From the NCBI GenBank assembly GCA_016699935.1, contig CP064992.1:1080001-1112000 (forward strand): DNA of 32,000 bases, in the 5' to 3' direction. Shown in pieces: positions 5,602-30,903 of this stretch. The notes below the pieces were generated by a model, which was not told the DNA's origin, did not search any database, and was given only the letters and a program-made list of their open reading frames with translations. Made by a program: the position numbers and the translations under genes. Source of the stretch: Candidatus Saccharimonadota bacterium (GTDB lineage: Bacteria; Patescibacteriota; Saccharimonadia; Saccharimonadales; UBA4665). Within the stretch, counting starts at the first letter, position 1, and the number at the start of each line of letters is the position of its first letter.

Positions 5602-6009
5602 TTAGCGTTTAGTGAATTGGCGTTGTTTGCGGGCGCCTTTGAGGCCAAACTTCTTGCGTTCGCGTTCGCGGCTATCGCGGCCGAGCAGTTCAGCGCGGCG
5701 CAATGTTGCCTTGTAGTCCTCATTCTTCTCCACGAGAGCCCTGGCAATCCCAAGACGAATCGCATCGGCTTGACCAGCGTGTCCGCCGCCACTTACAACG
5801 ACAGTTACATCGTAGTCTTTCAGTGGGAGTTCAAGCACAGCAAACGGTTTCTGGATTTCACCTAGCAGCAGTTTGCTCTCGGCAAAATATTCGGCAACTG
5901 GTTTGTTGTTGATAACAACGTTGCCTTTGCCTTTCATGAGTCGCACGCGTGCCGTGGCGCTTTTACGGCGGCCTAGAGCATAGTAGTAGTGTGAGGCTTT
6001 ATCTGCCAT
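5602..6009 (-). CDS. rpsI: 30S ribosomal protein S9
   Basis: Intact 135 aa; YYALGRRKSATARVRL ... ends RKQRQFTKR. Confidence 0.95.
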   Translation of the reverse strand: MADKASHYYYALGRRKSATARVRLMKGKGNVVINNKPVAEYFAESKLLLGEIQKPFAVLELPLKDYDVTVVVSGGGHAGQADAIRLGIARALVEKNEDYKATLRRAELLGRDSRERERKKFGLKGARKQRQFTKR

Positions 6010-6023
6010 TATGCATTCCTTTC

Positions 6024-6160
6024 CTGATTTAGCAGATCACATTGAACAGATGGCAGAAATTGAGCATTTTGCATTTTACATGCACTCGCACCTATGATTC
6101 GCCTGCTACCTGACGTCTGAAAATTTTCTGAAAACTGAAAATTGATACCTGATACCTGCA
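6024..6160 (-). repeat. Heptad-registered intergenic element, copy A (rplM | rpsI)
   Basis: CTGATTTAGCAG...GGCAGAAAT...CTGCTACCTGA...GATACCTGATACCTGCA. It fills the gap between the inferred rplM stop (6161) and the rpsI SD. Confidence 0.85.
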
Positions 6161-6600
6161 TTATTTGCTCCTCTTGAGCGAATAATGCTCTGGTTTTTGG
6201 GGGCGTGGTTATGCTCGGCGCCTGTGTATATTTTCAGGCGAGCGAGACGACCATCGCGCAGTTTATTGCCAGGTAGCATGCCGCGCACAGCTTGCAATAT
6301 TACTTCAGTGCTGTCTTTAGCAACGACGTCTTTGAGCTGTCGCTCACGCAGGCCACCTGGGTAGCCACTGTGGTTGTAATACATTTTATCGGTCATTTTA
6401 GCACCGGTAACCTGAAGCTTGTCGGCGTTAATTACTATGACAAAATCACCACAGTCAATATGACTTGTGAACATCGGCTTACCTTTACCGGTCAGTAGGG
6501 TTGCAACTTGTGTGGCAACTCGACCTAGCGTGGTTTCAGATGCATCCACGACATACCACTTTCGGGTAACCTCGCTTGGTTTTGCAGAATATGTGCTCAT
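6161..6600 (-). CDS. rplM: 50S ribosomal protein L13, C-terminal frame break
   Basis: MSTYSAKPSEVTRKWYVVDA...GYPGG. The listed ORF (6106..6600) reads through into the repeat. Adding one base in the C/A runs near 6178-6186 gives HAPQKPEHYSLKRSK* ending at 6161. Confidence 0.9.
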
Positions 6601-8103: not shown

Positions 8104-8721
8104 TTAGCGTGAGTAGTACTCAACAATTAGTTGTTCGTTAATTTCTGGTTCAGCATCTTCACGCAGCGGAATGCCGGTAATTTTCAGCTGGACTTTCTTT
8201 CGGTCTACAGTCTCCCAGTTGGGAGTAGTGCTTGGTGCTGGGCTTGTTTCATCGAGTTTCTTGAAATACTCGCTCGACTTACTATGCTCGCGGAGTTCAA
8301 TGACATCGCCTACTCGGAGTCGGATAGATGGTATATCAACGCGTCGTCCGTTCAGCATGAAGTGACCATGTGTCACAAGCTGGCGAGCAGCGCGTCTTGA
8401 TGGGGCAAAACCTGCACGGTAGACTCCATTATCAAGCCTTCTTTCTAGATACTGAAGCAATGTTGCGCCGGATTGACCGGGTGTGCGTGATGCTTCCGCC
8501 ATGAGGTTAGAGAACTGCTTCTCGAGTAGGCCATAGAGCCGCTTAACTTTCTGCTTTTCCCGCAGCTGCAAAGAATATTGGCTCGGTTTGTTCCGGGTGC
8601 GCGCATTGGCTGCCTGACCGGGCATATTTGTTCGCTTTGCAAGTGCCTTGTGTGCCTTCGGGTGCAAGGCATAGCCTTCACGGCGCGACATTTTAACGAT
8701 AGAACCAGTATCACGTGCCAT
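8104..8721 (-). CDS. rpsD: 30S ribosomal protein S4
   Basis: The true start is MARDTGSIVKMSRREG at 8721 (SD AGGAG upstream). The listed ORF start at 8754 is a repeat-borne extension. Confidence 0.93.
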   Translation of the reverse strand: MARDTGSIVKMSRREGYALHPKAHKALAKRTNMPGQAANARTRNKPSQYSLQLREKQKVKRLYGLLEKQFSNLMAEASRTPGQSGATLLQYLERRLDNGVYRAGFAPSRRAARQLVTHGHFMLNGRRVDIPSIRLRVGDVIELREHSKSSEYFKKLDETSPAPSTTPNWETVDRKKVQLKITGIPLREDAEPEINEQLIVEYYSR

Positions 8722-8734
8722 TATGCATCTCCTT

Positions 8735-8870
8735 CTGGATTTAGCAGGGAGCATTGAGCATTTGGCAGAGATTTGACAGATTGCAATTGGCAGATGTTGC
8801 CACGTGCAGCTAATCTGCTACCTGAAACCTGTGATATTTCTGTTACCTGAAAAATGTTACTTGAAGTTTT
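8735..8870 (-). repeat. Heptad-registered intergenic element, copy B (rpsK | rpsD)
   Basis: CTGGATTTAGCAGGGAGCATTGAGCATTTGGCAGAGAT...CTGCTACCTGAAACCTGTGATATTTCTGTTACCTGAAAAATG. Confidence 0.85.
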
Positions 8871-8887
8871 GAGTGGGTTGTTCACGG

Positions 8888-9289: not shown

Positions 9290-9407
9290 TATGCGCTCCT
9301 CTTGGTCACTGTGGGCGAGAGGTTATAGGTTATAGGTGCTAGGTTGTTTGAAGATCCTTGAACCTTCAACATAGAACCATCAACTTGTTGAAATGCGTAG
9401 TAATTCA
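9290..9407 (-). repeat. Heptamer-array spacer (rpsM | rpsK)
   Basis: GGTTATA GGTTATA GGTGCTA GGTTG on the left faces AACC-word units on the right (GAACCTTCAACATAGAACCATCAAC). Confidence 0.6.
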
Positions 9408-10308: not shown

Positions 10309-11869
10309 TTACGACGAGCTGTAAAGTGTTTTTAAATTATTACTTCTTATTTTGCGAGATTTTAGTAGGTAATCGACGCGGGGTTTTGGCACGTAGCGGA
10401 GCACCTTTGCACCGCCAGTTGTTGCGCTTAAATCATCTCCACCAAGACTGTCGTAGAAGAAGTCATTACGGCTGTATTGGTCATATGTAATCATAAGTGC
10501 CCGAGACTCAACAGCACGAAGGGTTTCCAACGATACGGCCACAAGTATAAGAACACTGGTGCCGCCTAACGCTAACGCAATGTTTTCTGGGACGAACATT
10601 TGTGCCACAATTGGCATGATTGCTAATATCCCCAAACATATTGCACCAAAGAGTGTTATTTTATTGACGGTTTTAGCTAGGTAGCGTTCTGTCTGGGTAC
10701 CGGATCGCACTCCTTCTAAGAATCCGCCCTGCTTCTGAAGGTTCTCGGCAATTTCTTTGCTATTGAACGTAATACTTGTGTAGAAGAAGGTAAACAGAAA
10801 TACCAGCAAGAAGTACGTCAGTGGGTATATATAGGCCTGCCAGCCACCCGCAGCCAAAGTTTGGGCAGTCGGGTTTTGAAACCACGTTACAAGGTTTTGA
10901 CCAAGCTCAGCCCACTTCGGGTTGCTACTAGAAGTCATGAGCTGACCTGCAAGCTTGGAACACTTAAGAATGCGATGGCAAATATAATAGGCACAACACC
11001 CGCTGTGATGAGCTTTACCGGTAGCGTCGTGGTTACTCCACCGTAGGCACGATTTCCCTGAACGCGTTTGGCGTAGTTGATCGTAAGGCGCCTAGCCGCC
11101 TCGTTCAACATGACAACTATCCACGTCACCAATATGACCACTGCCAAGATGGCGAGCGCATACCAGAACGATCGGGCATTAATGGGTAGCTCGCGTCCGA
11201 AAATCTCCCATTATTGGTCTTATCGTATATAGATGATGCCAATTGGCTAATAGTACCCGGCAAGGCGCTCACAATTCCCACTGTGATTAGGAGCGAAATG
11301 CCGTTGCCAACCGATTTCTCGGTGACAAGTTCACCCATCCACATCAGCAGCATAGAGCCGCCGGTAAGTGCAGCGACCATAAGAACCCATTGCCATAAAG
11401 ACGTATTTGCCGTTATATCGCCTATGCCGCCAACTTGCTGCGCATACTGACGAACGAGGTAGATCGATCCGATAGCCTGTATGATTGCCAGGGAAAGGTA
11501 AGCATCCGCGTATACTGGTTGATTCGCTTCTGTCCGGACTCACCATCTTTACGCATTTTTCAAGCTTTGGAAGAGCCTTGGTGAGTAGCTGCATGATAAT
11601 ACTAGCGTTGATGTACGGGCCAAGTCCGGCAATCATGATAGAGAAATTAGCAAGTGCGCCGCCACTCAGTACGTTTATGAAACTCAGTAGCTGCGGTGTA
11701 TCCTGCGATGAAAACAGGTTTGTCAGCACTTGTTTTAGCGTTTCCGGATCGGCCAAAGGCACTGGTATGTGCGCTAGGATACGAAAAATCAGCAATATTG
11801 CGAGTACGCCAAAAATGCGCTTTCGCATATCACGCGTGTAAATGATGCTCCAATAATTTTCCAGTTCAC
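10309..11869 (-). CDS. secY: Preprotein translocase SecY, frame broken at least 4 times; start uncertain
   Basis: Pieces 11331..11828, an unlisted frame at about 11380-11555 (KMRKDGESGQKRINQYTR..), 11126..11380, 10935..11147 and 10309..10938. Breaks lie near 11556 (A-run), 11490 (C-run), 11211 and 10945. A possible GTG start at 11869 follows AAGAGGGG but is out of frame with the ATG at 11828. Confidence 0.88.
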
Positions 11870-12615: not shown

Positions 12616-12837
12616 CTACGCGCCATCACTTAGTCTCCTTCTTGGGTGCTGCTTTCTTGGCGGCTGGCTTCTTGGCTGGGGTTGCTTTCTTCGTCTCGGA
12701 TGCTTTTTAACAGGGCAGCTTTCACCTCGGGCTGTTTTTGAAGATTCTTCGCTATCGCTCAGAATGACAGCTGGTTTTGCTACTTTCTTCTCTTGATTCA
12801 TGACTTGTGATTCTTGATTCTTGTGTTTTGTGGTCAC
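12616..12837 (-). CDS. Small basic K/R/P/A-rich ORF in the slot where rpmD (L30) usually sits; frame ambiguous
   Basis: The listed frame ends PRRRKQPQPRSQPPRKQHPRRR. An alternative frame ends ETKKATPAKKPAAKKAAPKKETK*, which resembles the K/A/P tails of L22, L23 and L24 here. It is not L30-like. Confidence 0.3.
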   Translation of the reverse strand: MTTKHKNQESQVMNQEKKVAKPAVILSDSEESSKTARGESCPVKKHPRRRKQPQPRSQPPRKQHPRRRLSDGA

Positions 12838-14427: not shown

Positions 14428-14829
14428 TTAGTACACCTGACAGATTAGTTCGCCGCCGACACCTTGGGCTTTGGCTTCTTCGCCAGTCATCAAGCCCTTG
14501 CTGGTGCTGATGATGAGGACGCCACGACCACGTTTTACCTGAGGAACTTCGCGGGCATTGGTATAAGTACGACGACCAGGTTTGCTGAGGCGCTTGATTT
14601 CGGTAATTTTTGCATTTTCACCATCGAGGTTGATAGTGATATGCAGGCGTTTACCGACACTCAGGTCCTCTGTAGTGACATCATGCAAAAAGCCGTTGTT
14701 GCGAAGACTAATTGCAACATTCTCTTTGATTTTGCTATGCGGGAGACTGACTTCGTTTTTGCCAACGGCAATTGCGTTGCGCACACGGGTCAGCATGTCT
14801 GAGATAGGATCAGTAGTGGTTACGCTCAT
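14428..14829 (-). CDS. rpsH: 30S ribosomal protein S8
   Basis: The true start is MSVTTTDPISDMLTRVRNA at 14829. The listed start at 14862 is a repeat-borne extension. Confidence 0.94.
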   Translation of the reverse strand: MSVTTTDPISDMLTRVRNAIAVGKNEVSLPHSKIKENVAISLRNNGFLHDVTTEDLSVGKRLHITINLDGENAKITEIKRLSKPGRRTYTNAREVPQVKRGRGVLIISTSKGLMTGEEAKAQGVGGELICQVY

Positions 14830-14843
14830 ACGCTTACTCCTTT

Positions 14844-14980
14844 CTGATTTAGCAGAGAGCATTGAGCATTTGGCAGAAATGTAGCAGATTTCATGTAGCA
14901 GACAGGACTACATGCAGCAACCTTGCTACCTGACACCTGTGAAATGTGTGCTATGTGAGAAATGATACCTGATACATGGA
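14844..14980 (-). repeat. Heptad-registered intergenic element, copy C (rpsN | rpsH)
   Basis: CTGATTTAGCAGAGAGCATTGAGCATTTGGCAGAAAT...CATGTAGcagacaggaCTACATG...TTGCTACCTGACACCTGTGAAATG. Confidence 0.85.
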
Positions 14981-14995
14981 GTGATGACGACTTCA

Positions 14996-15265
14996 TTACC
15001 AGCTCGCTTTCGTTACACCAGGGATCTCTCCCTTGCTTGCATGTTCGCGGAAAGACAACCGGCTCAGGCCGAATTGGCGCATGTAGGCATGTGGCCTGCC
15101 CGTTTCGATGCAGCGGTTCTTACGGCGTGTTGGTGAAGAATTGCGAGGCAATTTTGCCAAACCTTCGTAGTCACCAAGCTCCTTAAGCTCTTTGCGCTTC
15201 GCGGCGTACTTGTCTATCATCTTGATGCGCTTTTTATCACGCGCGAGGTTCGATTTCCTAGCCAT
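14996..15265 (-). CDS. rpsN: 30S ribosomal protein S14 (long, 89-aa form)
   Basis: Intact; [24 protein letters not shown]...[11 protein letters not shown]. Confidence 0.93.
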
Positions 15266-15362
15266 TATTGTGCTCCTTTCAATCGCGGCATGACGAATGA
15301 CCTATGACCAGAGACGGTTATAACGCCAGCGGATACTTCATTCTTCATACTCCATACATCAT
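15266..15362 (-). repeat. Heptamer-array spacer (rplE | rpsN)
   Basis: CATGACG AATGACC TATGACC on the left faces CTTCATT CTTCATA CTCCATA CATCATT on the right. Confidence 0.6.
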
Positions 15363-15971
15363 TCATTTCGCATTCTCCTTTTCAAACGGCATACCAAATT
15401 TCTGTAATAGCGCCTTGCTATGAGACTTGTCTTCACATTTCACGACGAAAACGGCTTGCATACCGTGAGGTGTCGTGGTTTCTTCGAATGTAAGCTCAGG
15501 AAACACACTTTGGTCGGTCAGACCAAGACTAAAGTTGCCCTGCTTGTCAAAAGCTTTGTTATTCACACCGTGGAAGTCACGCAGCCGTGGCAACACAATA
15601 TTTATGAGGCGATCCATAAACTCATACATTCGCTCGCCGCGCAGGGTCAGCTTGAGGCCGATCATATTTCCTTCACGCAATTTGAATCCAGCGATCGAGT
15701 TCTTTGCAACCGTTTCGACAGGTTCTTGGCCGGTGACTTTACGAAGTGTGTTCTTCGCTGCCTCTATGGTTTTCTTGTCTTCTTTTGCTTTGCCAAGACC
15801 GACGTTTATGACGATCTTTTCAAGCTTTGGCACCTCATGTGCATTGGTAAGGCCTAGTTCCTTTAGGAGCTCAGCTGCAAATTTTTCATTGTATTCTGCC
15901 TTGAGACGTGCAACATATGGAGTTGCTTTTTTCTTTGGGGCTGGCTTCTTGGTTGTAGTCGCTTCTGCCAT
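15363..15971 (-). CDS. rplE: 50S ribosomal protein L5
   Basis: Intact 202 aa; VPKLEKIVINVGLG. Confidence 0.95.
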   Translation of the reverse strand: MAEATTTKKPAPKKKATPYVARLKAEYNEKFAAELLKELGLTNAHEVPKLEKIVINVGLGKAKEDKKTIEAAKNTLRKVTGQEPVETVAKNSIAGFKLREGNMIGLKLTLRGERMYEFMDRLINIVLPRLRDFHGVNNKAFDKQGNFSLGLTDQSVFPELTFEETTTPHGMQAVFVVKCEDKSHSKALLQKFGMPFEKENAK

Positions 15972-16374
15972 TACAGTACCTTCGCTTCCTTCTTCGAATC
16001 AGCCTTTTTGGCTGGCGCTTCGATCTTCACTTCTTTGCCGCTCGCCTTATAGATGCGCTTCTTGCTGCCATCTTTGCCAAGCTCATAACCGATACGGGTT
16101 GGTTTCTTGGTTGTCGGGTCTATGACAGCCACTTTACTGACCCAGATTGGCTTGGTGATTTCGAGGATTCCTCCTGTGGGTGAGCCTGGTTCGGCTTCTG
16201 ATGCTTCTTGACTATGTTGATTCCTTCTACCGTGACTTTATTCTCAGTAGCGTGAGTTGTTAGAACCCGGCCTTGCTTGCCCTTGTATTTGCCACTCAGA
16301 ACCTGCACAAGGTCACCTTTCTTTAGTCTAATCTTCACTCTCTTGTCTCTTGTATCTTGGCTTTTGACTCTCAT
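15971..16374 (-). CDS. rplX: 50S ribosomal protein L24, frame broken once
   Basis: [21 protein letters not shown], then after a shift near 16170-16180 [30 protein letters not shown]...KEAKVL*. The stop overlaps the rplE ATG (TAATG). Confidence 0.92.
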
Positions 16375-16743: not shown

Positions 16744-16890
16744 TAGAAGGCTCCTTTCAGTCGCGGAAGCATGGAGTATGGAGTATGAATTATGCCAGCA
16801 GCTCCGTAGCTGTTTGTTTTCCATTCATGATTCATGATTCTTTCTCCTTGTCTGTCACCCCAGGAACTTCCACTGCTTTTTCGACGTGCT
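16744..16890 (-). repeat. Heptamer-array hairpin spacer (rpsQ | rplN)
   Basis: CATGGAG TATGGAG TATGAAT TATG on the left faces CCATTCA TGATTCA TGATTC on the right. A small central hairpin is present (CAGCAGCTCCGTAGCTG). Confidence 0.65.
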
Positions 16891-17333: not shown

Positions 17334-17452
17334 CTAAAGGCTCCTTTCGGTCGTCACAAGGCTTTGGGCTGAGAGCTGAGACCATAGTTCACTAGAGCCA
17401 ACTCTGCCCTTTGCCCCTTGCCCTTTGCTCTGATAAGATACGAGGTTTTTCA
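17334..17452 (-). repeat. Heptamer-array spacer (rplP | rpmC)
   Basis: GGCTTTG GGCTGAG AGCTGAG on the left faces GCCCTTT GCCCCTT GCCCTTT GCTCTG on the right. Confidence 0.6.
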
Positions 17453-17866
17453 TTACACGCCCTCCTTCACAACAAATTTTGTCTTGACTGGCAGCTTGTG
17501 GCCAGCGAGACGCATTGCTTCTCGAGCAGTTTCCTCGCTAACACCCTGCATTTCAAACATAATGGTGCCAGGTCGGACTTTAGCAACGAAAAACTCAGGG
17601 CTACCTTTGCCACTACCCATTTTGACATCGAGCGGCTTGCGGGTGACTGGCGTATGAGGGAATATGCGGATCCAGATTTTGCCACCACGCTTGATGTAAC
17701 GAGTCATGGCCTGTCTTGAGGCCTCAATCTGTCGGCTTGTAATACGCTCGTGACCTTGTGCTTGGAGCGCGTATTCGCCGTAGGCAATATAGTTCCCGGC
17801 CGTCGCCACGCCACGGATCTTGCCCTTGCGAACTTTCCGGAATTTGGTTCTTTTCGGCAATAATAT
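17453..17866 (-). CDS. rplP: 50S ribosomal protein L16; non-ATG start
   Basis: ..[18 protein letters not shown]. At the position where sister genes have ATG (SD plus 7 nt) the codon is ATA (17866). A TTG follows at 17860. The listed start at 17899 is a repeat-borne ATG. Confidence 0.9.
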
Positions 17867-17880
17867 TAGAAAGCTCCTTT

Positions 17881-18010
17881 CTGATTTAGCAGAAAGCATT
17901 CAGCATTTGGCAGAAATATAGCAGATGGCATGTGGCAGATGTTGCCACGCGCAGCTAACCTGCTACCTGACACCTGTGAAATTTCTGCTACCTGAAAAAT
18001 GATACCTGCA
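17881..18010 (-). repeat. Heptad-registered intergenic element, copy D (rpsC | rplP)
   Basis: CTGATTTAGCAGAAAGCATTCAGCATTTGGCAGAAAT...GTGGCAgatgtTGCCAC...CTGCTACCTGACACCTGTGAAATTTCTGCTACCTGAAAAATGATACCTGCA. Confidence 0.9.
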
Positions 18011-18030
18011 TAGTGGGACGACGCTGTCAT

Positions 18031-18660: not shown

Positions 18661-19049
18661 TACTTTGCCTCCTTCTTATCCGCGGCCTTGGCAGCTGCAG
18701 GTTTTTTAGCAGGACGTTGCTCGCCATCGACGAGTACGCGAATATGTGATGAACGCTTCATGTAAGGCAAGGCGCGGCCCATGGCTGCAGGGCGGAAACG
18801 CTTCATGCGAGGCCCGTGATTGACAGTGATTTCGGTAATGACAAGGGTATCTGCCTTGTAGTTGTGGTTGTGAGCGGCGTTAGCCTGTGCACTCTTGATT
18901 GTTTTGAGAACAGATAGTGCGGAGCGCCGTGGCGTGTGTTCGAGGATAACGATAGCATCGGCGACGGTGCGACCACGCACGAGCGCTGCCACAGCAGCCA
19001 CCTTACGTGGGCTTAATCGAACGCCTTTAGACTCGGCTTTTACAGACAT
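18660..19049 (-). CDS. rplV: 50S ribosomal protein L22
   Basis: The true start is MSVKAESKGVRLSPRKV at 19049. The listed start at 19082 is a repeat-borne extension. Confidence 0.93.
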   Translation of the reverse strand: MSVKAESKGVRLSPRKVAAVAALVRGRTVADAIVILEHTPRRSALSVLKTIKSAQANAAHNHNYKADTLVITEITVNHGPRMKRFRPAAMGRALPYMKRSSHIRVLVDGEQRPAKKPAAAKAADKKEAK

Positions 19050-19063
19050 CAGAAAGCTCCTTT

Positions 19064-19206
19064 CTGATTTAGCAGTGAGCATTGAGCATTTGGCAGAAAT
19101 TTGGCAGGTTGCATTTGGATGGTGACTTCGGTTGCAGCCTGTCTGCTACTTGAAACCTGTAAAATTTCTGCTACCTGAAAAATGCTACCTGAAAAATATG
19201 AAACCT
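19064..19206 (-). repeat. Heptad-registered intergenic element, copy E (rpsS | rplV)
   Basis: CTGATTTAGCAGTGAGCATTGAGCATTTGGCAGAAAT...CTGCTACTTGAAACCTGTAAAATTTCTGCTACCTGAAAAATGCTACCTGAAAAAT. Confidence 0.9.
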
Positions 19207-19214
19207 GTTTCATC

Positions 19215-19487: not shown

Positions 19488-19644
19488 CTGACGCTCCTTT
19501 CAGTCGCTTCAATATGCAATTTACAATTCTCAATTTTCATTACATCTGCGACTTGCGATTTGCGGTTTACAGCTGCATTGCTAATTGGTAATTGATAATT
19601 CATTGGTAATTGGTAATTGGTAATTGGTAATTGGAGCATCGCGA
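19488..19644 (-). repeat. Heptamer-array spacer with (TAATTGG)n tandem repeat (rplB | rpsS)
   Basis: CAATATG CAATTTA CAATTCT CAATTTT on the left faces TAATTGG TAATTGA TAATTCA TTGG then 4 x TAATTGG (about 19583-19637) on the right. Confidence 0.8.
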
Positions 19645-22169: not shown

Positions 22170-22353
22170 AGTGTTCGCGCGGGTTCATACGAACCCACAC
22201 TCTCCTTTGTTATAAGAGTTATTTGGTATTTATACTCACCCGATCCGTATTAATGCCTTGTACAGTGACATTAAGAAAATGGTGGCCGGGGTTCCCCGCC
22301 TCTGGCGGGGCCTACCTCACATCACCATACGGAAATGTTTGTATGTAAGCATC

Positions 22354-22383
22354 AGATTACCACACAACCCAAACCCCTGTCAA
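22354..22383 (-). promoter_or_regulatory. Candidate strong promoter upstream of rplC
   Basis: Minus strand reads TTGACA (22378-22383), 18 nt, TAATCT (22354-22359), followed by a leader of about 180 nt with GC hairpins. Confidence 0.5.
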
Positions 22384-22422
22384 CCCGTTGCAAATACTAC
22401 ACCACTGGTTAATAGCAGGTGC

Positions 22423-23253
22423 CTATTTGTGCTTCCAGTCCAGTGTTCTATGTATCGTTCGTGAAGCTGAAATTTTCTTCCCAAACTGTTCCGCTCCATT
22501 GGTAGTTTGCTCCGTAAAAACTCTCTTTCCCAGATTGGCTGCCTTGGCTTTAACAGACTGAATCAACGTGGGTCAACCGTATGTTGTAACGGCGCGTTGG
22601 GATCTCTATCCTTTATTCTTTTATCTTCAGAGAAAGCGTTATGATTAGCAAGCCCAACTCTTGCTTCCTGTCGATCTTCTTCGGTTTGAATTGCAAGCTC
22701 AATTGGTATCTCAAGTTTCTTGCCTTCGATTTCTACACACATTATTACTGTTATTTTGCGACATGGAACAATCTATTGTTCGGTTCAAAATTATCCCTTC
22801 ACCGTCTGGTAGCCAGTCTCCAATATTCGGCGGTAACCCTTTTGAAAATTTTGGAAATAGTCAGGTGAGCCCTGCACAATATATGGTGACGTCTTTGATG
22901 GCCCTGGCACAGCATGAATATCACTGCTTTTTGTATTCCTTCAAGTATTTCAGAAAATAGTATGGCAAGATGGCCGACTTCTTTAACGACAAACGTCAAC
23001 CCATATTTATCAGAAATATTGATATCTTCTGCTCGAACATCCTGCCCTTTACTGCGTAATTTTTCTTCAAGCCTTATTCGCTTATCAAATGCACTTGCGT
23101 CAGTTTTCCTCTATACACCACCCTTACGACGTCATTTATAGCGTTGCTATGAACCATCGCAACGCCAAAGACGATATTGTGTGGTGTGTTGCCTTGGATT
23201 GAATGTTCTTGAAGACTATCAATACCGAAAAGTCTATTTAATAAGCCACTCAT
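22423..23253 (-). CDS. Cassette gene B: hypothetical protein (about 275 aa), frame broken at least 4 times
   Basis: The ATG at 23253 overlaps the gene A stop (ATGA). Pieces read MSGLLNRLFGIDSLQEHSIQGNTPHNIVFGVAMVHSN.. / DASAFDKRIRLEEKLRSKGQDVRAEDINISDKYGLTFVVKEVGHLAILFSEILEGIQKAV / ..VEIEGKKLEIPIELAIQTEEDRQEARVGLANHNAF.. / LIQSVKAKAANLGKRVFTEQ..WKHK*. No family was recognised. Confidence 0.45.
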
Positions 23254-24040
23254 ATGGCGAGCTGCTTCATCACGCCCACCAAACTGCTCTGAATATTTTT
23301 TTTTGTCGCTATAAACAAGTCAAGTCGCTCGGGATGTTCAAGTAAGAGCCGCTTTTCATTATTTCGGAGTGCCATCGTAAACGCATCTTTACCAATAAAT
23401 GAAGTTACCTGGGCATAGAATAGGTCACTGAGACGAGCATTGTGGATAATAGATTTTGATGTTTGAGCTTCGGAAACTAGTCCCGTCGCGAGACTACGAG
23501 CAGCCATTATTACCACGGAATCAAGTGTAACCACGTCAAGAATAGCGTCCATCTGCATTGCGTCAATTCGACCAAAACCATGTTCACCCTCTTTCGGAAG
23601 CTTCTTTTTTGTTTTTCGAGATCTTAAACTAGGTTGATCCAATGGAGCTAGAGCTGAAACATGGCTCTCGCCATAGTCACTAACAATCGAGAAATCATGT
23701 AAATACTTCTTAACTTCATCCCAGTGCTCTGGGCTCACATTATTTGAGTATTCTTTTAATAGACCCCTTGCATTTCTACCTAATTGCTCATCTACTGCGT
23801 CAATTCCTAACTTACTTAACAAGGCTGCAGAATAGGCAGCATGAGTCATGGTATCACCGAGAAAATCATACAATACGCGACAAGTAAGCTCAGATTCTTC
23901 TAGGGTACGAGCGTCGTGGCAACGTTGAGCATAATCAGCAACAATGTTTTGTTCTAAACCAAGATCATGCTGCCCAATAGCAAACTCAACCGCCCTACTC
24001 GGCCGCCTTCGTTTGATAACTTTAATTCTTCTCCAGACAT
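23250..24040 (-). CDS. Cassette gene A: hypothetical protein (about 263 aa); N-terminal part weakly MazG/all-alpha NTP-pyrophosphohydrolase-like (tentative)
   Basis: The listed ORF 23250..23873 extends upstream in the same frame (AVEFAIGQHDLGLEQNIVADYAQRCHDARTLEESELTCRVLYDFLGDTM...) to near an ATG at 24040 in another frame (one early shift). The acidic EExE and DxxGD pattern followed by LGID is the only hint of function. Confidence 0.5.
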
Positions 24041-24047
24041 TCTATAT

Positions 24048-24076
24048 ATTCTAGCATATTTGTCATGTTTTGTCTA
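24048..24076 (-). promoter_or_regulatory. Candidate promoter giving a leaderless cassette mRNA
   Basis: Minus strand reads TAGACA (24071-24076), 17 nt, TAGAAT (24048-24053), 7 nt, then the ATG (24040). No SD is present. Confidence 0.4.
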
Positions 24077-24119
24077 TATATGAGGTCTTGCGGTCTTTTT
24101 GATTTGAGCAACTTTGTAA

Positions 24120-24451
24120 CTACATCTTGATTTCGACGTCGCAGCCGGCGGGGAGGGATAGGTTCATCAGGCTGTCGATGGTCTTGGGAGTTGGTTCAAA
24201 TACGTCGATGAGGCGTTTGTGGACGCGCATTTCGAACTGTTCGCGCCCTTTTTGTAGACATGAGGACTTTTCACCACCGTAAAGGTGCTTTTGCGGGTAG
24301 GTAGTGGGATGGGTCCAGCTAGCGTTGCGCCTGTGCGAAGTGCGGTGTCGACTATTTGCTTGGCGGCTTGGTCGATGATTTTGTGGTCGTAAGCCTTTAG
24401 GCGTATACGAATACGCTGTTTGCCTGGTACTGGTTGTTTGGCGTCTGCCAT
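24120..24451 (-). CDS. rpsJ: 30S ribosomal protein S10, frame broken once
   Basis: [57 protein letters not shown], then after a shift near 24246-24249 [41 protein letters not shown] (stop at 24120). Confidence 0.93.
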
Positions 24452-24475
24452 GGTATAAAAACCTCCGGTTTTTAA

Positions 24476-24503
24476 TAGTTAGTAGTTGGTAGTTGGTAGT
24501 TAG
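24476..24503 (-). repeat. Tandem heptamers TAGTTAG TAGTTGG TAGTTGG TAGTTAG in the rpsJ leader
   Basis: Direct reading of the sequence; adjacent to the SD hairpin at 24457-24473. Confidence 0.8.
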
Positions 24504-24658
24504 GAAAGCCTAAAAACAACTCGTGCAAACGGCCGGCTTCACCCGGTTTGGCTTTGTAACACCTTACGAATTCACCTGGGAACGCGCACGGCTTTTATTC
24601 AAAGCTACTGGTTTACAAGAGTAATGGTACCACATAACCAGTACGAGCGCAAAACTAG

Positions 24659-25078
24659 CTACGTTTTCTTCCTGTAAAAACGTAGGGCGGAGGCAACTTT
24701 TTTGTGGATGGGTTCTTTGGGTGGCTTAGTCGCATACTCGGCAAAGACACTATTTACAAAGTCATCTATTTCATCATCGGTCATGCCAGTTAGGGAATCC
24801 CCGTTTACGTCGTTAAGGCCAGATTCGCGGTAGGAAACGGTGCTGGTACCGGTGTGGAACTGGTGGAGAAGGTCGTAGGCTTTGCGACTTTGGCTTCCCT
24901 GCAAGGTCGAATAAGCCTCATTAAGTCGTTGCATATCCTCCAGGGTTCCCCCAGCATCGGGATGCTGCTGCTTTGCCAGCCGGACAAAAGCACTACGTAT
25001 GTCTACAGCTAAAGCATCTGGCTGGATACCAAGCAGCTGGTAGTAGTCGACAAATGAGTTGCTAGTTTCGTGTGTCAT
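24659..25078 (-). CDS. Stand-alone J-domain (DnaJ-like) protein
   Basis: Intact 139 aa; DYYQLLGIQPDA..IRSAFVRLAKQQHPDAGG (HPD motif) ..AYSTLQGSQSRKAYD. No Zn-finger or C-terminal DnaJ domains. Confidence 0.8.
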   Translation of the reverse strand: MTHETSNSFVDYYQLLGIQPDALAVDIRSAFVRLAKQQHPDAGGTLEDMQRLNEAYSTLQGSQSRKAYDLLHQFHTGTSTVSYRESGLNDVNGDSLTGMTDDEIDDFVNSVFAEYATKPPKEPIHKKVASALRFYRKKT

Positions 25079-26782: not shown

Positions 26783-27136
26783 CTATTCGTATTTAAGCTT
26801 TAGATCGAGTTTGTCAGCGATTTGAAAAATCCATTTTTCCATGCGTACTTGTTGGGCGTCGCGAGCCACATTATCTTGTAGGATATCTTCAATGCGTTTC
26901 ATGTGGCCATCCAGTATCTGGAAAATTTTGTTTATTTTTGCATCGATTTCATCAAACCGTTTATCGTGTTCCTCGAGTTTGCTTTCAACGCGGAACAGTC
27001 GAGCATCCATAGCGTCGAACCGTTGATCCATAGCGTCGAACCGTTGATCCATAGCGTCGAACCGCTCGGAAACCATCGTGGTTATATCAGAAATAGCTCC
27101 GATTACATCATCCAGATCGGTTGGCTTCTTGGGCAT
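26783..27136 (-). CDS. Small coiled-coil protein with RFDAMDQ heptad repeats
   Basis: Intact 117 aa; ..SERFDAMDQRFDAMDQRFDAMDARLFRVESKLEEHDKRFDEIDAKI.. Confidence 0.6.
   Translation of the reverse strand: MPKKPTDLDDVIGAISDITTMVSERFDAMDQRFDAMDQRFDAMDARLFRVESKLEEHDKRFDEIDAKINKIFQILDGHMKRIEDILQDNVARDAQQVRMEKWIFQIADKLDLKLKYE
27005..27067. repeat. 3 x 21-bp tandem repeat (ATCCATAGCGTCGAACCGTTG) inside the coiled-coil ORF
   Basis: Two perfect units plus a third that diverges at its end. Confidence 0.9.
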
Positions 27137-27154: not shown

Positions 27155-29243
27155 CTATTTAGAGTTCTTGGCGATGATGGCTTCGGCGACGTTGTTTGGC
27201 ACGTCGGCGTAGTGGTCTAGTTCCATGCTGGAGCTGGCCCGGCCCTGGCTCATTGAGCGCAAGTTCGTCGTGTAACCAAACATCTCTCCAAGTGGAACGA
27301 ACGCTGTTATTTCCTTGATCCCAGACGAAAGATCTTCCATCGATTCAATCCGACCGCGCTTGCTATTTAGGTCACCTATGACGTCACCCATGAAACTTTC
27401 TGGTGTGACAACGACGACTTTCATAACTGGCTCGAGCAGTACTGGACCGGCTTTTTTGAAGCCATCCTGGAAGCCCATAGAACCAGCGATGCTGAAAGCC
27501 ATTTCAGAGGAGTCAACTTCGTGGTAACTACCATCGTACAACTCAACTTTGACGTCGACGACCGGGTAACCAGCTATCACACCATTGCTCATAGCTTCTT
27601 CTATACCCTTGCGGACGGCTGGGATGTATTCACTCGGCACCACACCACCTTTGATAGAGTTGATCCATTCAAAGCCGGCACCCTGTTCGTTGTGGCTGAG
27701 GCAAGAAGCCAGACGTCACCGTACTGACCGCGGCCACCACTCTGGCGGACAAACTTGCCCTGGGCTTCGACAGCATCTTTGCGGATGGTTTCTCGGTAGG
27801 CCACCTGCGGCTGGCCGATGTTTGCTTCAACGCTAAACTCGCGCTTCATGCGGTCAACCAAAATTTCGAGGTGTAGCTCACCCATACCAGATATAATCGT
27901 CTGGCCAGTTTCATCATCTACGCGCACTCGGAACGTTGGGTCTTCTTCGGCTAGGCGCTGGAGGGCTAGACTCATTTTCTCTTGATCGGCTTTGGTCTTT
28001 GGCTCAATCGCAATCGATACTGGTGGATCTGGGAAAGTAATGTTTTCGAGTTTAATCGGGTGAGCTGGGTCACATAGTGTGTTGCCAGTGGTTGTTCCCT
28101 TGAGCCCGACTATAGCGGCGATGTCGCCCGCCACCACTTCGGTGACGTCTTCGCGCTTGTCGGCTTGCATACGAACGATACGTCCGACGCGTTCTCTTTC
28201 ACCAGTGGAACTATTCAGCACATAGGAACCTGCTTGGAGCGTACCGGAGTAGACACGGAAATACGCGAGCTTACCGACAAATGGGTCGGTCGTGATTTTG
28301 AAAGCTAGACCCGAAAGAGGCTCTGTTTCGCTATGTTTGCGCTCAATTTCTTCGCCAGTTTTGGGGTGTACGCCCCAGGTGTTGCTACAGTCACTTGGTG
28401 CTGGCAGGTAGTCATTGACCATGTCGAGCACTTTTTCGACGATGACTCCGCGGCCATCACCACCGGTGACAGCATAGAACTTGCTACTTAAAACAGCACT
28501 ACGGATGGCTTGTTTGATTTCGTCAACTGAGAGACCTTCTTCGCCGACCTCAAAGTACTTTTCCAGAATAGCTTCGTCTTCGGCAACGGCATTTTCGATG
28601 AGTAGACTGCGATACTTTTTGACCTGCTCCATCATATCGGCTGGGATTTCGCCCTCTACAAGTTCGTGGTCGTGAAATTCGGTGTAGGTGTAGGCCTTCA
28701 TAGTGACAAGGTCGACAACGCCATTGATGCTCTGTTCGAAACCAATTGGTAGGTGAACCGGGAAGGCACGTTTGCTCAAGCGGTGGTGAATGCTGTCGAG
28801 GCTCTTGTAGAAATCGCCACCGGTTTGGTTGATTTTGTTGATGAAACAGATGCGTGGTACGCCGTATTTGTCGGCTTGACGCCAAACAGTTTCACTTTGG
28901 CTTTCGACACCCATCTTGCCGTCGAAGACGACACAGGCACCGTCGAGCACGCGGAGACTGCGTTCCACCTCGGCCGTGAAGTCTATATGGCCGGGAGTGT
29001 CGATGATGTTGATCTGGTGACCTTCCAAAAACAGGTCACAGCAGCCGAAACGATGGTGATGCCACGCTCACGTTCTTGCTCCATCCAGTCGGTGGTCGTG
29101 CCTCCTTCGTGAACAGCACCAATTTTGTGCTTTAGACCCGTACGATACAGAATTCCTTCTGTCGTAGTCGTTTTACCCGCATCGATATGGGCAATAATGC
29201 CGATATTGCGGATGTCTTTCATTAGTACTTTCTTGTCTGCCAT
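27155..29243 (-). CDS. fusA: Elongation factor G, frame broken twice
   Basis: 28983..29243 ([14 protein letters not shown]), 27601..29028 ([10 protein letters not shown]...) and 27155..27643 (C-terminal domains). Shifts lie near 29020-29030 and 27700-27715. Confidence 0.96.
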
Positions 29244-29255
29244 TTTGTCTCCTTA

Positions 29256-29287
29256 GAGTTAAGAGTTATGAGATAAGAGATAAGATC
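29256..29287. repeat. Inverted-repeat arm (downstream side) bracketing the four-helix-bundle gene
   Basis: GAGTTAAGAGTTATGAGATAAGAGATAAGA. This is the reverse complement of 29654-29683 at 28 of 30 positions and is built of GAGNTAA heptads. Confidence 0.9.
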
Positions 29288-29653
29288 TTATTTCGTACCA
29301 TTTGTTTTATTGATTAAACCTGTCAGTAGCTTGTGGCATTCTATGCTTGCATCGTCTAGACTTTGGTGTCTATCTTGCAAAATATAACCAACATCTTTTG
29401 CGACTAAGAGTTGCGCTTGTACTTCGTGCAATGACGCTCGTGCCATATCGTAAAAATGTGCTCGATCAGCCATCGTACGTCGACCAAAACCTTCAGCAAT
29501 ATTTGAAACTAATGAGACTGAAGCTCTTCGTATCTGGTTGGTTAGACCAAAGATTTCATCTCGTGGAAACTCTTTTGTAATCCTATAAATGTCTAGAGTC
29601 AGAGCGTGGGATTTCTGCCAAGCTATGAGGTCGCGAAATGTGTGGATACTCAT
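29288..29653 (-). CDS. Four-helix-bundle protein of the '23S rRNA intervening-sequence protein' family (Avd-like fold)
   Basis: Intact 121 aa; FRDLIAWQKSHALTLDIYRITKEFPRDEIFGLTNQIRRASVSLVSNIAEGFGR...FYDMARASLHEVQAQLLVAKDVGYI is the typical family signature. Confidence 0.85.
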   Translation of the reverse strand: MSIHTFRDLIAWQKSHALTLDIYRITKEFPRDEIFGLTNQIRRASVSLVSNIAEGFGRRTMADRAHFYDMARASLHEVQAQLLVAKDVGYILQDRHQSLDDASIECHKLLTGLINKTNGTK

Positions 29654-29683
29654 TCTTAACTCTTATCTCATATCTCTTAACTC
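29654..29683. repeat. Inverted-repeat arm (upstream side) bracketing the four-helix-bundle gene
   Basis: TCTTAACTCTTATCTCATATCTCTTAACTC, starting immediately after the start codon position. Confidence 0.9.
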
Positions 29684-29696
29684 TACTAAACGTAGT

Positions 29697-30176
29697 TTAG
29701 CCGCGGGCGAAGTGCGCGAAGGCGCGGTTAGCGTCGGCCATGCGGTGCGTATCTTCACGCTTCTTGACGGCTGAACCTTGATTGTTGTAAGCATCCATTA
29801 GCTCGGCAGCGATGCGGTCAGCCATGCTCATGCCCTTGCGGGAACGGCAGGCGGCGACGAACCACATGGTAGTCAGGTGATTTTGGCGCTGGCCTTTGAC
29901 TTCAAATGGAATCTGATAGTTGGCACCACCAACGCGGCGAGAGCGAGTCTCGACGTTCGGGCGTATATTGCCCATGGCTTGGTCAAATACGTCTAGTGGG
30001 TTTTCGACTTTCAGTTTGTCGGCAGCTTTTTGCATACCGGTATAGACTAGCCGCTCGGCGACTTGCTTTTTGCCGTCGCGCATAACGCGGTTGATGAGAC
30101 GCTGCACCGGCACACTGTTGTATATACGGTCAGCTGGTATGTCTCGAACTAGTGAGGCAGTTACTTTCCTAGGCAT
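29697..30176 (-). CDS. rpsG: 30S ribosomal protein S7
   Basis: The true start is MPRKVTASLVRDIPADRIYNS at 30176. The listed start at 30212 is a repeat-borne extension. Confidence 0.94.
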   Translation of the reverse strand: MPRKVTASLVRDIPADRIYNSVPVQRLINRVMRDGKKQVAERLVYTGMQKAADKLKVENPLDVFDQAMGNIRPNVETRSRRVGGANYQIPFEVKGQRQNHLTTMWFVAACRSRKGMSMADRIAAELMDAYNNQGSAVKKREDTHRMADANRAFAHFARG

Positions 30177-30189
30177 TAGAGGCTCCTTT

Positions 30190-30329
30190 CGGAGAGATTT
30201 AGCATTGAGCATTGAGCATTTTGCAGAAATTTAGCAGTTTGCATTTGGCAGAAATTGCTGATTGCGATATGTCTGCTACCTGATACCTGTAAAATTTCTG
30301 CTACCTGAAAATTGCTACCTGAAAAATGG
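30190..30329 (-). repeat. Heptad-registered intergenic element, copy F (rpsL | rpsG)
   Basis: ..GATTTAGCATTGAGCATTGAGCATTTTGCAGAAAT...CTGCTACCTGATACCTGTAAAATTTCTGCTACCTGAAAATTGCTACCTGAAAAATG. Confidence 0.88.
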
Positions 30330-30342
30330 AAGGGCGCAGTCA

Positions 30343-30756
30343 TTACTTGCTCTCCTTTTTGGCGCCGTATTTACTACGACCCTGTTTGCGGTTTTGGACG
30401 CCTTGGAGGTCTAGGGCGCCACGAACGATGTGATAACGCACACCTGGTAAGTCCTTGACACGACCGCCACGGATCATGACGACAGCGTGTTCTTGCAGGT
30501 TATGGCCTTCTCCGCCGATGTAGGCCCAGACTTCATAGCCATTGCCGAGTCGCACACGGGCAACCTTACGCAGAGCGGAGTTTGGTTTCTTTGGTGTTTT
30601 GGTGGTGACCTTGACGCACACGCCGCGCTTGAATGGTGCGGGTTTTTCGTAGTGTTTGGTCTTTAGGTTGTTGGTAACACGCATGAGCGCCGGGCTTTTG
30701 GTCTTCGTTTTGACCTTTGTCCGAGGCTTGCGCACCAGTTGGTCAATGGTAGGCAA
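30343..30756 (-). CDS. rpsL: 30S ribosomal protein S12 (TTG start)
   Basis: Intact 137 aa; (TTG)[11 protein letters not shown]...; SD GAGAAAGGGG upstream. Confidence 0.95.
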
Positions 30757-30903
30757 AATATGCCCCTTTCTCCAGGATTTTACCTGGGATAGCTAATTAC
30801 CGAAGAGAGTCTCACCCTGGATTACTCATGCCAAGGTGTAACATATCTCCTCTCCCGCCAAACCCGACCGTAGCCGGAGGCTCGAATTTGATATAACCCA
30901 TGT

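Follow-up and report, generated by a model that had tools for sequence, protein, structure and literature searches.

The cassette at the rpsG–fusA junction

We examined a 32,000-nt stretch of DNA from a Candidatus Saccharimonadota bacterium (contig CP064992.1, positions 1,080,001 to 1,112,000), hereafter the window, meaning the whole of this stretch. It covers a ribosomal-protein supercluster of a Saccharibacteria (TM7) genome, with a G+C content of 48.7% and genes all on the minus strand. Between rpsG and fusA lies an additional small gene of the PF05635 family, giving the minus-strand order rpsL, rpsG, PF05635 open reading frame (ORF), fusA, and this gene, together with the inverted repeats that enclose it (hereafter, the cassette), is the subject of our analysis. 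An earlier interpretation made without database searches (the sequence-only reading) had reported here an intact 121-aa ORF bracketed by 30-nt inverted repeats matching at 28 of 30 positions. The ORF is indeed intact and occupies 29288..29653 on the minus strand, with an ATG start codon at 29651–29653, and the repeats, which we call arms, proved slightly longer than noted, at 29254–29285 and 29654–29685, 32 nt each and complementary at 30 of 32 positions. The features of the junction, in the direction of transcription, are the following.

29697..30176, minus strand: rpsG, the host gene on the upstream side, coding for ribosomal protein S7; PF00177 in orthologous loci
29685..29701, minus strand: 7-bp hairpin that includes the rpsG stop codon (29697–29699), between rpsG and the 5' arm, in the predicted minimum free energy (MFE) structure
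29654..29685, minus strand: 5' (upstream) arm, mRNA sense UAGAGUUAAGAGAUAUGAGAUAAGAGUUAAGA; purine-rich, about 4.4 heptads, ending at the AUG of the ORF
29288..29653, minus strand: 121-aa PF05635/TIGR02436 four-helix-bundle protein (S23p or '23S rRNA intervening sequence (IVS) protein', Avd-like), identified by a match to hidden Markov models (HMMs)
29254..29285, minus strand: 3' (downstream) arm, mRNA sense UCUUAUCUCUUAUCUCAUAACUCUUAACUCUA; pyrimidine-rich heptad array
29249..29253, minus strand: Shine-Dalgarno (SD) sequence AGGAG of fusA, adjoining the outer end of the 3' arm, read from the sequence
27155..29243, minus strand: fusA (EF-G), the downstream host gene, with its ATG at 29241–29243; in three frames in the assembly

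Read in mRNA sense, the 5' arm stops at 29654, flush against the ATG of the ORF, and the 3' arm begins 2 nt past its TAA (29288–29290). Each arm is a period-7 array containing 4.4 copies of a heptad of the type GAGWTAA, and the pattern GAGWTAAGAGWTAWGA occurs six times in the window, exclusively in the arms, against an expectation of 0.09. The ungapped inverted-repeat score of the two arms is 27, compared with a maximum of 13 among shuffled flanks, none of 2000 shuffles reaching the observed value. When the mRNA strand was folded from 29235 to 29705, the arms formed the basal stem around the cistron in the predicted MFE structure (z = -4.67), bearing out the earlier proposal that the whole cistron would be the loop of such a stem; the arm–arm duplex by itself amounts to -40.7 kcal/mol. 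The sole SD-like sequence of the ORF (AAGAG) falls within the 5' arm. Neither a promoter-like site nor a minus-strand terminator-like site was found within 28900–30900, and, given also its same-strand neighbours, the simplest reading places the cassette within the operon transcript.

Set against the usual characteristics of MITEs (miniature inverted-repeat transposable elements) and insertion sequences, the cassette has inverted repeats, has no flanking direct repeat, is present in a single copy in the window, and shows no transposase domain among matches to Pfam- and TIGR-type models. No target-site duplication was seen by eye at the arm ends, nor were any duplicated bases evident in comparison with the empty site of a close relative (L011, below). 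Compared with rRNA IVSs, it has the enclosing stem and the heptads before the start codon, and it does not lie in a 23S rRNA helix. Because of its location between rpsG and fusA, and because Rfam searches at gathering thresholds gave no match across the whole window, the cassette is not an rRNA IVS in the strict sense.

The protein and its family

The HMM check proposed in the sequence-only reading was run and upheld its assignment of the protein to the IVS-protein family: PF05635 matches with an E value of 9.9e-36 (122.6 bits against a cutoff of 33.8, model positions 1–106 of 106), and TIGR02436 with 2.2e-34 (117.9 bits against a cutoff of 24). Among solved structures, PDB 2GSC (XCC0516), reported to be a homopentameric toroid, matches residues 9–115 (E = 4.1e-19), and 2RLD matches with E = 5e-05. 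Forty alignment columns are invariant among 34 homologues. The conserved motif of the family is GxxRxxxSxxxNxxE (PMC3936711); R43, S47, N51 and E54 are present in the protein and invariant in the 34 homologues, the first position being Q40 rather than G. PF05635 is a very large family, with 2998 matches among 3044 candidates in one search, and its genes have been noted before inside cas operons (PMC3936711). None of the PADLOC defence-system models matched the 121-aa protein, and profile searches found in it no recognisable nuclease, recombinase or transposase domain. In rRNA inserts of the candidate phyla radiation, the PF05635 domain is encoded only occasionally, and those of Saccharibacteria are mostly short and ORF-less.

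The Avd protein of diversity-generating retroelements (DGRs) is a distantly homologous four-helix bundle of similar size. One member, bAvd, forms a pentamer with a positive charge and binds both nucleic acid and the reverse transcriptase (RT). It is very improbable, in our judgement, that the cassette gene is a DGR remnant, that is, an Avd gene that lost its RT and template repeat (TR). The matches that might suggest such an origin are weak: the curated Avd models PF22296 (bAvd) and NF033474 reach 33.4 and 26.3 bits against cutoffs of 40 and 80 bits, respectively, and PHROG 3206 ('Avd protein of DGR') matches at 3e-12. No RT, TR or variable repeat lies near the cassette, and in the window, as at all orthologous loci, it has ribosomal or ATP synthase genes for neighbours; by eye, no RT-like neighbour was seen in the distant loci inspected, where the neighbours were not scanned against Pfam.

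Conservation, loss and selection at the same site

Relatives were collected by exact-protein look-ups and by an RpsG scan of species-representative genomes. The gene with heptad arms occupies the rpsG–fusA junction in independent assemblies at 87% (L001–L006), 85% (L007–L008), 73% (L009–L010), 72% (L014), 73% (L171) and 69% (L172–L174) protein identity. Gene and repeats thus keep together as the sequence-only reading implied, the relatives at 69–87% identity carrying the gene with arms rather than bare. A chance inverted repeat or an assembly artefact might be suspected in an assembly with indel errors, where fusA lies in three frames and secY is split; its probability is negligible given the shuffling result, and such an origin is refuted by independent loci with identical structure, drawn from independent assemblies of several samples and species.

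Between the window and L001 or L007, synonymous divergence (dS) is at least 2.2, third-position identity is about 50%, and the ratio of nonsynonymous to synonymous divergence (dN/dS) is 0.03–0.10. In the same comparisons, 31–32 of the 32 positions of the 5' arm and 31–34 of the 34 positions of the 3' arm are identical (97–100%, the two mismatched positions included), with 34/34 for the 3' arm against L001; the short spacers immediately outside the arms have diverged among the relatives. With synonymous sites saturated, dN/dS low and the arms near-identical, both the protein and the arm sequences are strongly constrained. Matched changes occur as well: heptad 2 of L009 is GAGGTAA in both arms, and both arms of L172 are built from the heptad type GAGTCAA/GAGTCAT. 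In L001, L007, L009, L014, L172, L175 and L176 the 3' arm ends on, or a few nucleotides before, an SD-like motif (AGGAG, AGAAG, GGAGG or AAAGGAG), and in L171 the gap between the two is longer.

The comparison of this junction among relatives, which had been suggested as a check, revealed turnover alongside conservation. The cassette is present in several species, the closest relative by RpsG (L011, 93%) has a cassette-free junction of 12 nt, L017 retains a remnant consisting of the last ~19 codons and the 3' arm, and L012 and L013 have unrelated sequence or ORFs in its place. L016 (RpsG 91%) has a 100-N scaffold gap exactly at rpsG–fusA (L016 2971–3070) and is uninformative; such a gap would be expected if an inverted-repeat cassette broke the short-read assembly. 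The earlier premise that the rpsG–fusA junction is normally tight did not hold in this group: across 80 Saccharibacteria species (L011–L090) the spacer is mostly 250–430 nt, tight in only about a dozen, and in most of the 80 species the slot contains a same-strand ORF of 75–165 aa, with no detectable similarity between most species.

Such constraint could be explained by domestication, with the stem serving the host as a processing or insulation site that uncouples rpsL–rpsG from fusA–tuf and the protein having a cellular job, for instance in ribosome or RNA metabolism, so that a selfish beginning of the element would have ceased to be relevant. We consider this improbable. The dN/dS of 0.03–0.10, the 40 invariant columns, persistence of the cassette at this junction even in lineages where identity falls to 69%, and an SD of fusA kept free beside the stem would all fit a host device, as would the location of the cassettes in the most highly expressed operons (ribosomal and, as described below, ATP synthase), but the distribution does not: the cassette is patchy among the closest relatives (L011 empty, L012 and L013 with unrelated ORFs, L017 decayed), unrelated ORFans fill the slot in most Saccharibacteria, and the same cassette type is found in unrelated operons, plasmids and viral contigs. 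Patchiness and such varied contexts point to the behaviour of an accessory element.

Packaging across the PF05635 family

Sister cassettes with somewhat more divergent homologues were found in the atp operons of Saccharibacteria, upstream of atpG and after atpA and a NYN-domain gene in L175, and between atpG and atpD in L176–L178. Their arms consist of GAGTCAA or CGAGTCA heptads, and the 3' arm again reaches the SD of the following gene or stops just short of it. Beyond these, we assembled distant loci from a metagenome scan (80 loci, 41–60% identity) and a viral-contig scan (14 loci). The flanks of 55% of 78 metagenomic loci reached an inverted-repeat score of at least 12; among 224 control ORFs taken from those contigs, the share was 1.3% (Mann-Whitney p = 2e-19). 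Locus-specific inverted heptad arms are present in about two thirds of ~100 distant PF05635 loci, among them 13 of the 14 viral-contig loci. The named plasmid examples are Nostoc punctiforme pNPUN01, with 44-nt arms (AGGAGTC/AGAATTC), Azospirillum lipoferum 4B (GGACGGA/GGACAGA) and Riemerella anatipestifer (AAGGTTC).

The armed loci follow a common plan. Their arms have a median length of 30 nt, a period of 7 fits best in 36 of 43 loci and one of 8 in six, and the 3' arm begins at or within a few nucleotides of the stop codon. The heptad sequence differs in almost every lineage (GAATTAG, AGTAGTA, AGTCGGG, TGGTTAG, GCATCAG and others), yet is shared by both arms of a locus; when each 5' flank was scored for ungapped complementarity, its single best partner was the 3' flank of its own locus in 43 of 100 cases, and that flank ranked among the top four in most others. 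Across 68 non-redundant loci the 5' arm is purine-rich in 58 and has more G than C in 62, a strand polarity relative to the gene that points to the transcript. Co-oriented genes closely flank the armed cassettes, at distances of ~30–60 nt, roughly one arm length, as at the junctions atpD–atpC and pilC–pilin and downstream of pheS. The landing of such a module in an mRNA operon had been put forward as if it were exceptional. In this sample the intercistronic position is instead the norm: a search for 23S and 16S signature motifs around the ~100 family loci gave only three chance 13-mer matches, and no locus lay near rRNA.

The arms also leave a trace in annotation. Gene callers run PF05635 ORFs into the arms, producing N-terminal tails of the MRVKSQESRVKS type (for example, 'MRVKSQESR...') and C-terminal LDS or RDS, which are translated GAGTCAA-type heptads. 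Cases include P0054, P0069, P0074, P0084, P0092, P0102 and others, as well as L172, L175 and L176. Translated arms are a systematic annotation artefact for the PF05635 family.

In our view, this packaging rule is a more interesting result than the single cassette. The family was named after what is a rare location in rRNA, whereas the gene normally travels as a package, that is, a purine-rich heptad array, the ORF and a complementary pyrimidine-rich array, wedged between co-oriented genes of busy operons. The package offers a testable mechanism for the family, namely a looped-out passenger cistron that is probably processed by RNase III, connects it with heptameric repeats for which two independent papers had no explanation, and accounts for the recurrent arm-derived tails in annotated proteins. 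The rule was not found stated in the literature on PF05635, TIGR02436, S23p or heptameric repeats, our coverage of which was incomplete, so that a prior description is possible.

Relationship to known systems

The likeness to ORF-bearing rRNA IVSs drawn in the sequence-only reading holds good and is sharpened by the heptads, and the anatomy is the same as that of the IVS of Coxiella burnetii. The latter, 428 nt long and inserted in helix 45 of 23S rRNA, has a 28-bp terminal stem and three to four GACAGAT heptamers directly before the S23p start; RNase III cuts have been mapped in the stem and remove the SD, and the S23p ORF is decaying and apparently untranslated (PMC4990558). The two elements share a stem of ~28–30 bp, formed by terminal inverted repeats, whose loop is an ORF of the PF05635 family, tandem heptamers right upstream of the ORF start whose copy number varies between strains, and an AG-rich ribosome-binding region within the stem. 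They differ in location, the Coxiella IVS sitting in 23S rRNA and the cassette between two protein genes of an mRNA operon, and in the state of the ORF, which is decaying in the former but intact and under strong purifying selection in the latter. Moreover, both arms of the cassette are clearly heptad arrays. RNase III cleavage within the stem was demonstrated by experiment in Coxiella and is presumed for the cassette. The 23S IVSs of Leptospira and Brucella also encode S23p homologues (as cited in PMC4990558). They resemble the cassette in that a highly transcribed gene carries a same-family ORF in an insert bounded by a stem, one that is excised in their case and presumably in that of the cassette, and differ in that the host gene is an rRNA gene. 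Ralph and McClelland, in 1993, are reportedly a source on 23S IVSs that encode S23p homologues.

In Xanthomonas campestris, Rehm et al. catalogued 186 GGGAATC heptamer arrays, usually of four units and including 70 inverted pairs, and left their function open, treating GGGGAYT heptameric intergenic repeats of Nostoc as well (PMC4692102). A four-heptad array of the GGGAATC type in the supplement (622956–622983), downstream of bccP, overlaps the start codon of XCC0516 (PMC4692102), so the published catalogue already holds the 5' arm of a PF05635 gene, unnamed as such. Like the arms of the cassette, the Xanthomonas repeats are intergenic arrays of about four heptads, often in inverted pairs, and XCC0516 is the closest solved homologue of our protein. 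Unlike them, the Xanthomonas and Nostoc repeats were treated as G-quadruplex candidates, and not connected to PF05635, in that publication; the heptads of the cassette (GAGWTAA) are A/T-rich and cannot form G-quadruplexes.

RAYT transposases are flanked by repetitive extragenic palindromic (REP) or REPIN elements, which they serve. With this arrangement and with MITEs the cassette has in common a single protein gene flanked by short inverted repeats that also occur ORF-less elsewhere in the genome. It differs from the RAYT/REPIN arrangement in that PF05635 is without a known catalytic domain, the repeats are tandem heptads rather than REP palindromes, and the ORF-less hairpins in the window do not share the arm sequence of the cassette. 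Two further parallels are mechanistic analogies only, with no sequence or family relationship to the cassette: in hok-type mRNAs, fold-back pairing of the 5' and 3' ends encloses the cistron and hides its ribosome-binding site, and in the early region of phage T7, intercistronic double-stranded RNA stems are cut by RNase III without harm to downstream translation.

A proposed passenger looped out of operon mRNA

On balance, and with moderate confidence, we favour the explanation that the element is an IVS-type cassette, a promoterless PF05635 gene between inverted heptad arrays that lies in sense orientation and is a selfish passenger looped out of the operon mRNA. The explanation builds on direct observations, namely how the cassette is built, its retention and turnover at one site, the constraint on protein and arms, the polarity of the arms, the intercistronic, co-oriented position, and like packaging in most of the family at large. 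The cassette would be transcribed within the operon mRNA, and once the 3' arm is made, the arms would pair into a duplex of about 30 bp, looping out the whole cistron. This pairing would bury the weak ribosome-binding region of the cassette while the SD of fusA stays free immediately 3' of the stem. By analogy with the Coxiella 23S IVS, the duplex is probably cleaved by RNase III, and cleavage would part rpsL–rpsG, the cassette RNA and fusA–tuf from one another and restrict synthesis of the cassette protein. On this view the element, selfish or semi-domesticated, would ride on highly expressed operons at low cost.

Several observations weigh against this explanation. Counted on the sense strand at 43 loci, arm mismatches were of the G·U type in 36 cases and of the A·C type in 37, with no excess of G·U; as the counts are practically equal, there is no RNA-specific pairing signature, and the wobble test is uninformative. 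Base-by-base conservation of the arms, mismatches included, exceeds the needs of pairing and fits sequence recognition in DNA or RNA at least as well. Long vertical retention and a constrained protein, unlike the decaying S23p of Coxiella, could mean a host function. Finally, about a quarter to a third of the family loci have no detectable arms, for example those of a human-gut group.

Nucleotide-level conservation of the arms without a G·U signature suggests that some factor reads the heptads, possibly the PF05635 protein itself. This opens an alternative in which the arms serve mainly to be recognised by their sequence, in DNA or RNA, by a trans-acting factor that mobilises, copies or maintains the cassette and possibly ORF-less heptad arrays at other places in the genome, pairing of the RNA stem being secondary. 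By analogy with RAYTs and their REP/REPIN elements, the most attractive candidate would be the toroidal PF05635 pentamer, 2GSC being a homopentameric toroid and the arms holding ~4–5 heptads. Arms that stay 97–100% identical at saturated synonymous divergence, with their mismatches kept, are what such a factor would lead one to expect, and cassettes at several operon junctions and in viral contigs, with presence, absence and a remnant among close relatives, are consistent with its activity. The inverted GGGAATC pairs of unknown function in Xanthomonas, one array of which overlaps the XCC0516 start (PMC4692102), fit as well. So would the excess of heptad arrays in the window, which contains 16 period-7 arrays, compared with 0–1 for each of the periods 4–6 and 8–12 and none in shuffles, whereas 405 kb from the str loci of 78 cassette-free Saccharibacteria contain only two. 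However, the other heptad arrays and hairpins of the window do not share the heptad sequence of the cassette, the protein is without a recognisable nuclease, recombinase or transposase domain, no target-site duplication marks the arm ends, and across deep divergence the cassette has remained where it is. Protein binding alone also leaves unexplained why the arms are inverted with a fixed purine/pyrimidine polarity. Recognition as the main role of the arms is, in our judgement, the chief rival explanation, unlikely but well short of far-fetched.

There is also a broader proposition: PF05635 with inverted heptad arms would constitute a widespread, so far unrecognised class of intercistronic cassettes ('operon IVS'), present in Patescibacteria, Cyanobacteriota, Pseudomonadota and Bacteroidota as well as phage contigs, whose toroidal pentamer reads the heptads, roughly one per subunit, and controls excision, silencing or spread. 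We put this forward tentatively and think it rather doubtful as a whole. Its components differ in standing, the packaging rule being a direct observation and the partnership of protein and heptads speculative. If the proposition were true, the pentamer would be the trans-acting partner of the excess heptameric intergenic repeats in Xanthomonas, Nostoc, Coxiella and the window, acting on ORF-bearing and ORF-less heptad hairpins alike.

Heptad arrays, hairpins and accessory genes elsewhere in the window

Intergenic heptad arrays were found at 6127–6159, 9314–9348, 12805–12835, 15333–15366, 16332–16369, 16765–16796, 16822–16850, 17400–17433, 19067–19096, 19508–19641, 24468–24507 and 30193–30228. 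They sit in the intergenic spacers of the ribosomal operons, and the heptad is different in each. Apart from the cassette arms, only 15333–15360 and 16766–16793 pair with one another (score 15.5, 82% complementary, 1405 nt apart), bracketing rplN-rplX-rplE (L14, L24, L5) with a purine/pyrimidine polarity opposite to that of the cassette.

The window also contains a family of ORF-less imperfect hairpins of ~140 nt in six copies (30176–30343, 19049–19213, 17866–18030, 14826–14996, 8721–8885 and 6009–6161). Each lies between two ribosomal protein genes, and its conserved terminal CTGCTAAATCAGAAAGGAG supplies the SD of the next gene; the hairpin reads through as a spurious ORF of ~54 aa (...FQVAEILQVSGSR...LPNAQCSLLN). 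None matched Rfam, and for five of the six the more stable fold is that of the strand antisense to the genes. The suggestion that the cassette is the ORF-containing counterpart of these hairpins found no link to support it, and their derivation from the cassette was dropped, the arm sequences being unrelated and the preferred folding strand opposite; some relationship is possible.

Upstream of the 5' arm, the small hairpin at the rpsG stop codon has CTAAAC/GTTTAG in the window and CTAGAC/GTCTAG in L001, with both sides altered, and L009 has a distinct 7-bp hairpin near the end of rpsG with the stop codon in the loop; this is a minor feature. On the other side of the cassette, the pieces of fusA in three frames (27155–29243) each show 95–97% identity to the L001 EF-G, and a T5 run lies in the stretch where one of the two frame switches occurs. 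Likewise, secY (10309–11828) is split into four ORFs, and for S10 and L14 the match covers the Pfam model only in part. Such frame changes in essential genes are most likely assembly indel errors rather than pseudogenes.

More generally, the ribosomal operons of Saccharibacteria carry variable slots for small accessory genes. The fusA–tuf spacer is variable too: L001 has a GIY-YIG gene there, and L007, L009 and the window each have an unrelated ORF. In the window this spacer encodes a 117-aa coiled-coil protein (26783–27136) with a perfect 21-nt repeat of 2.9 copies at 27005–27064 (DAMDQRF). A 139-aa DnaJ-domain protein (24659–25078) is encoded between tuf and rpsJ, and an insert of ~2 kb (22170–24166) between rpsJ and rplC includes a 207-aa ORF without a Pfam match.

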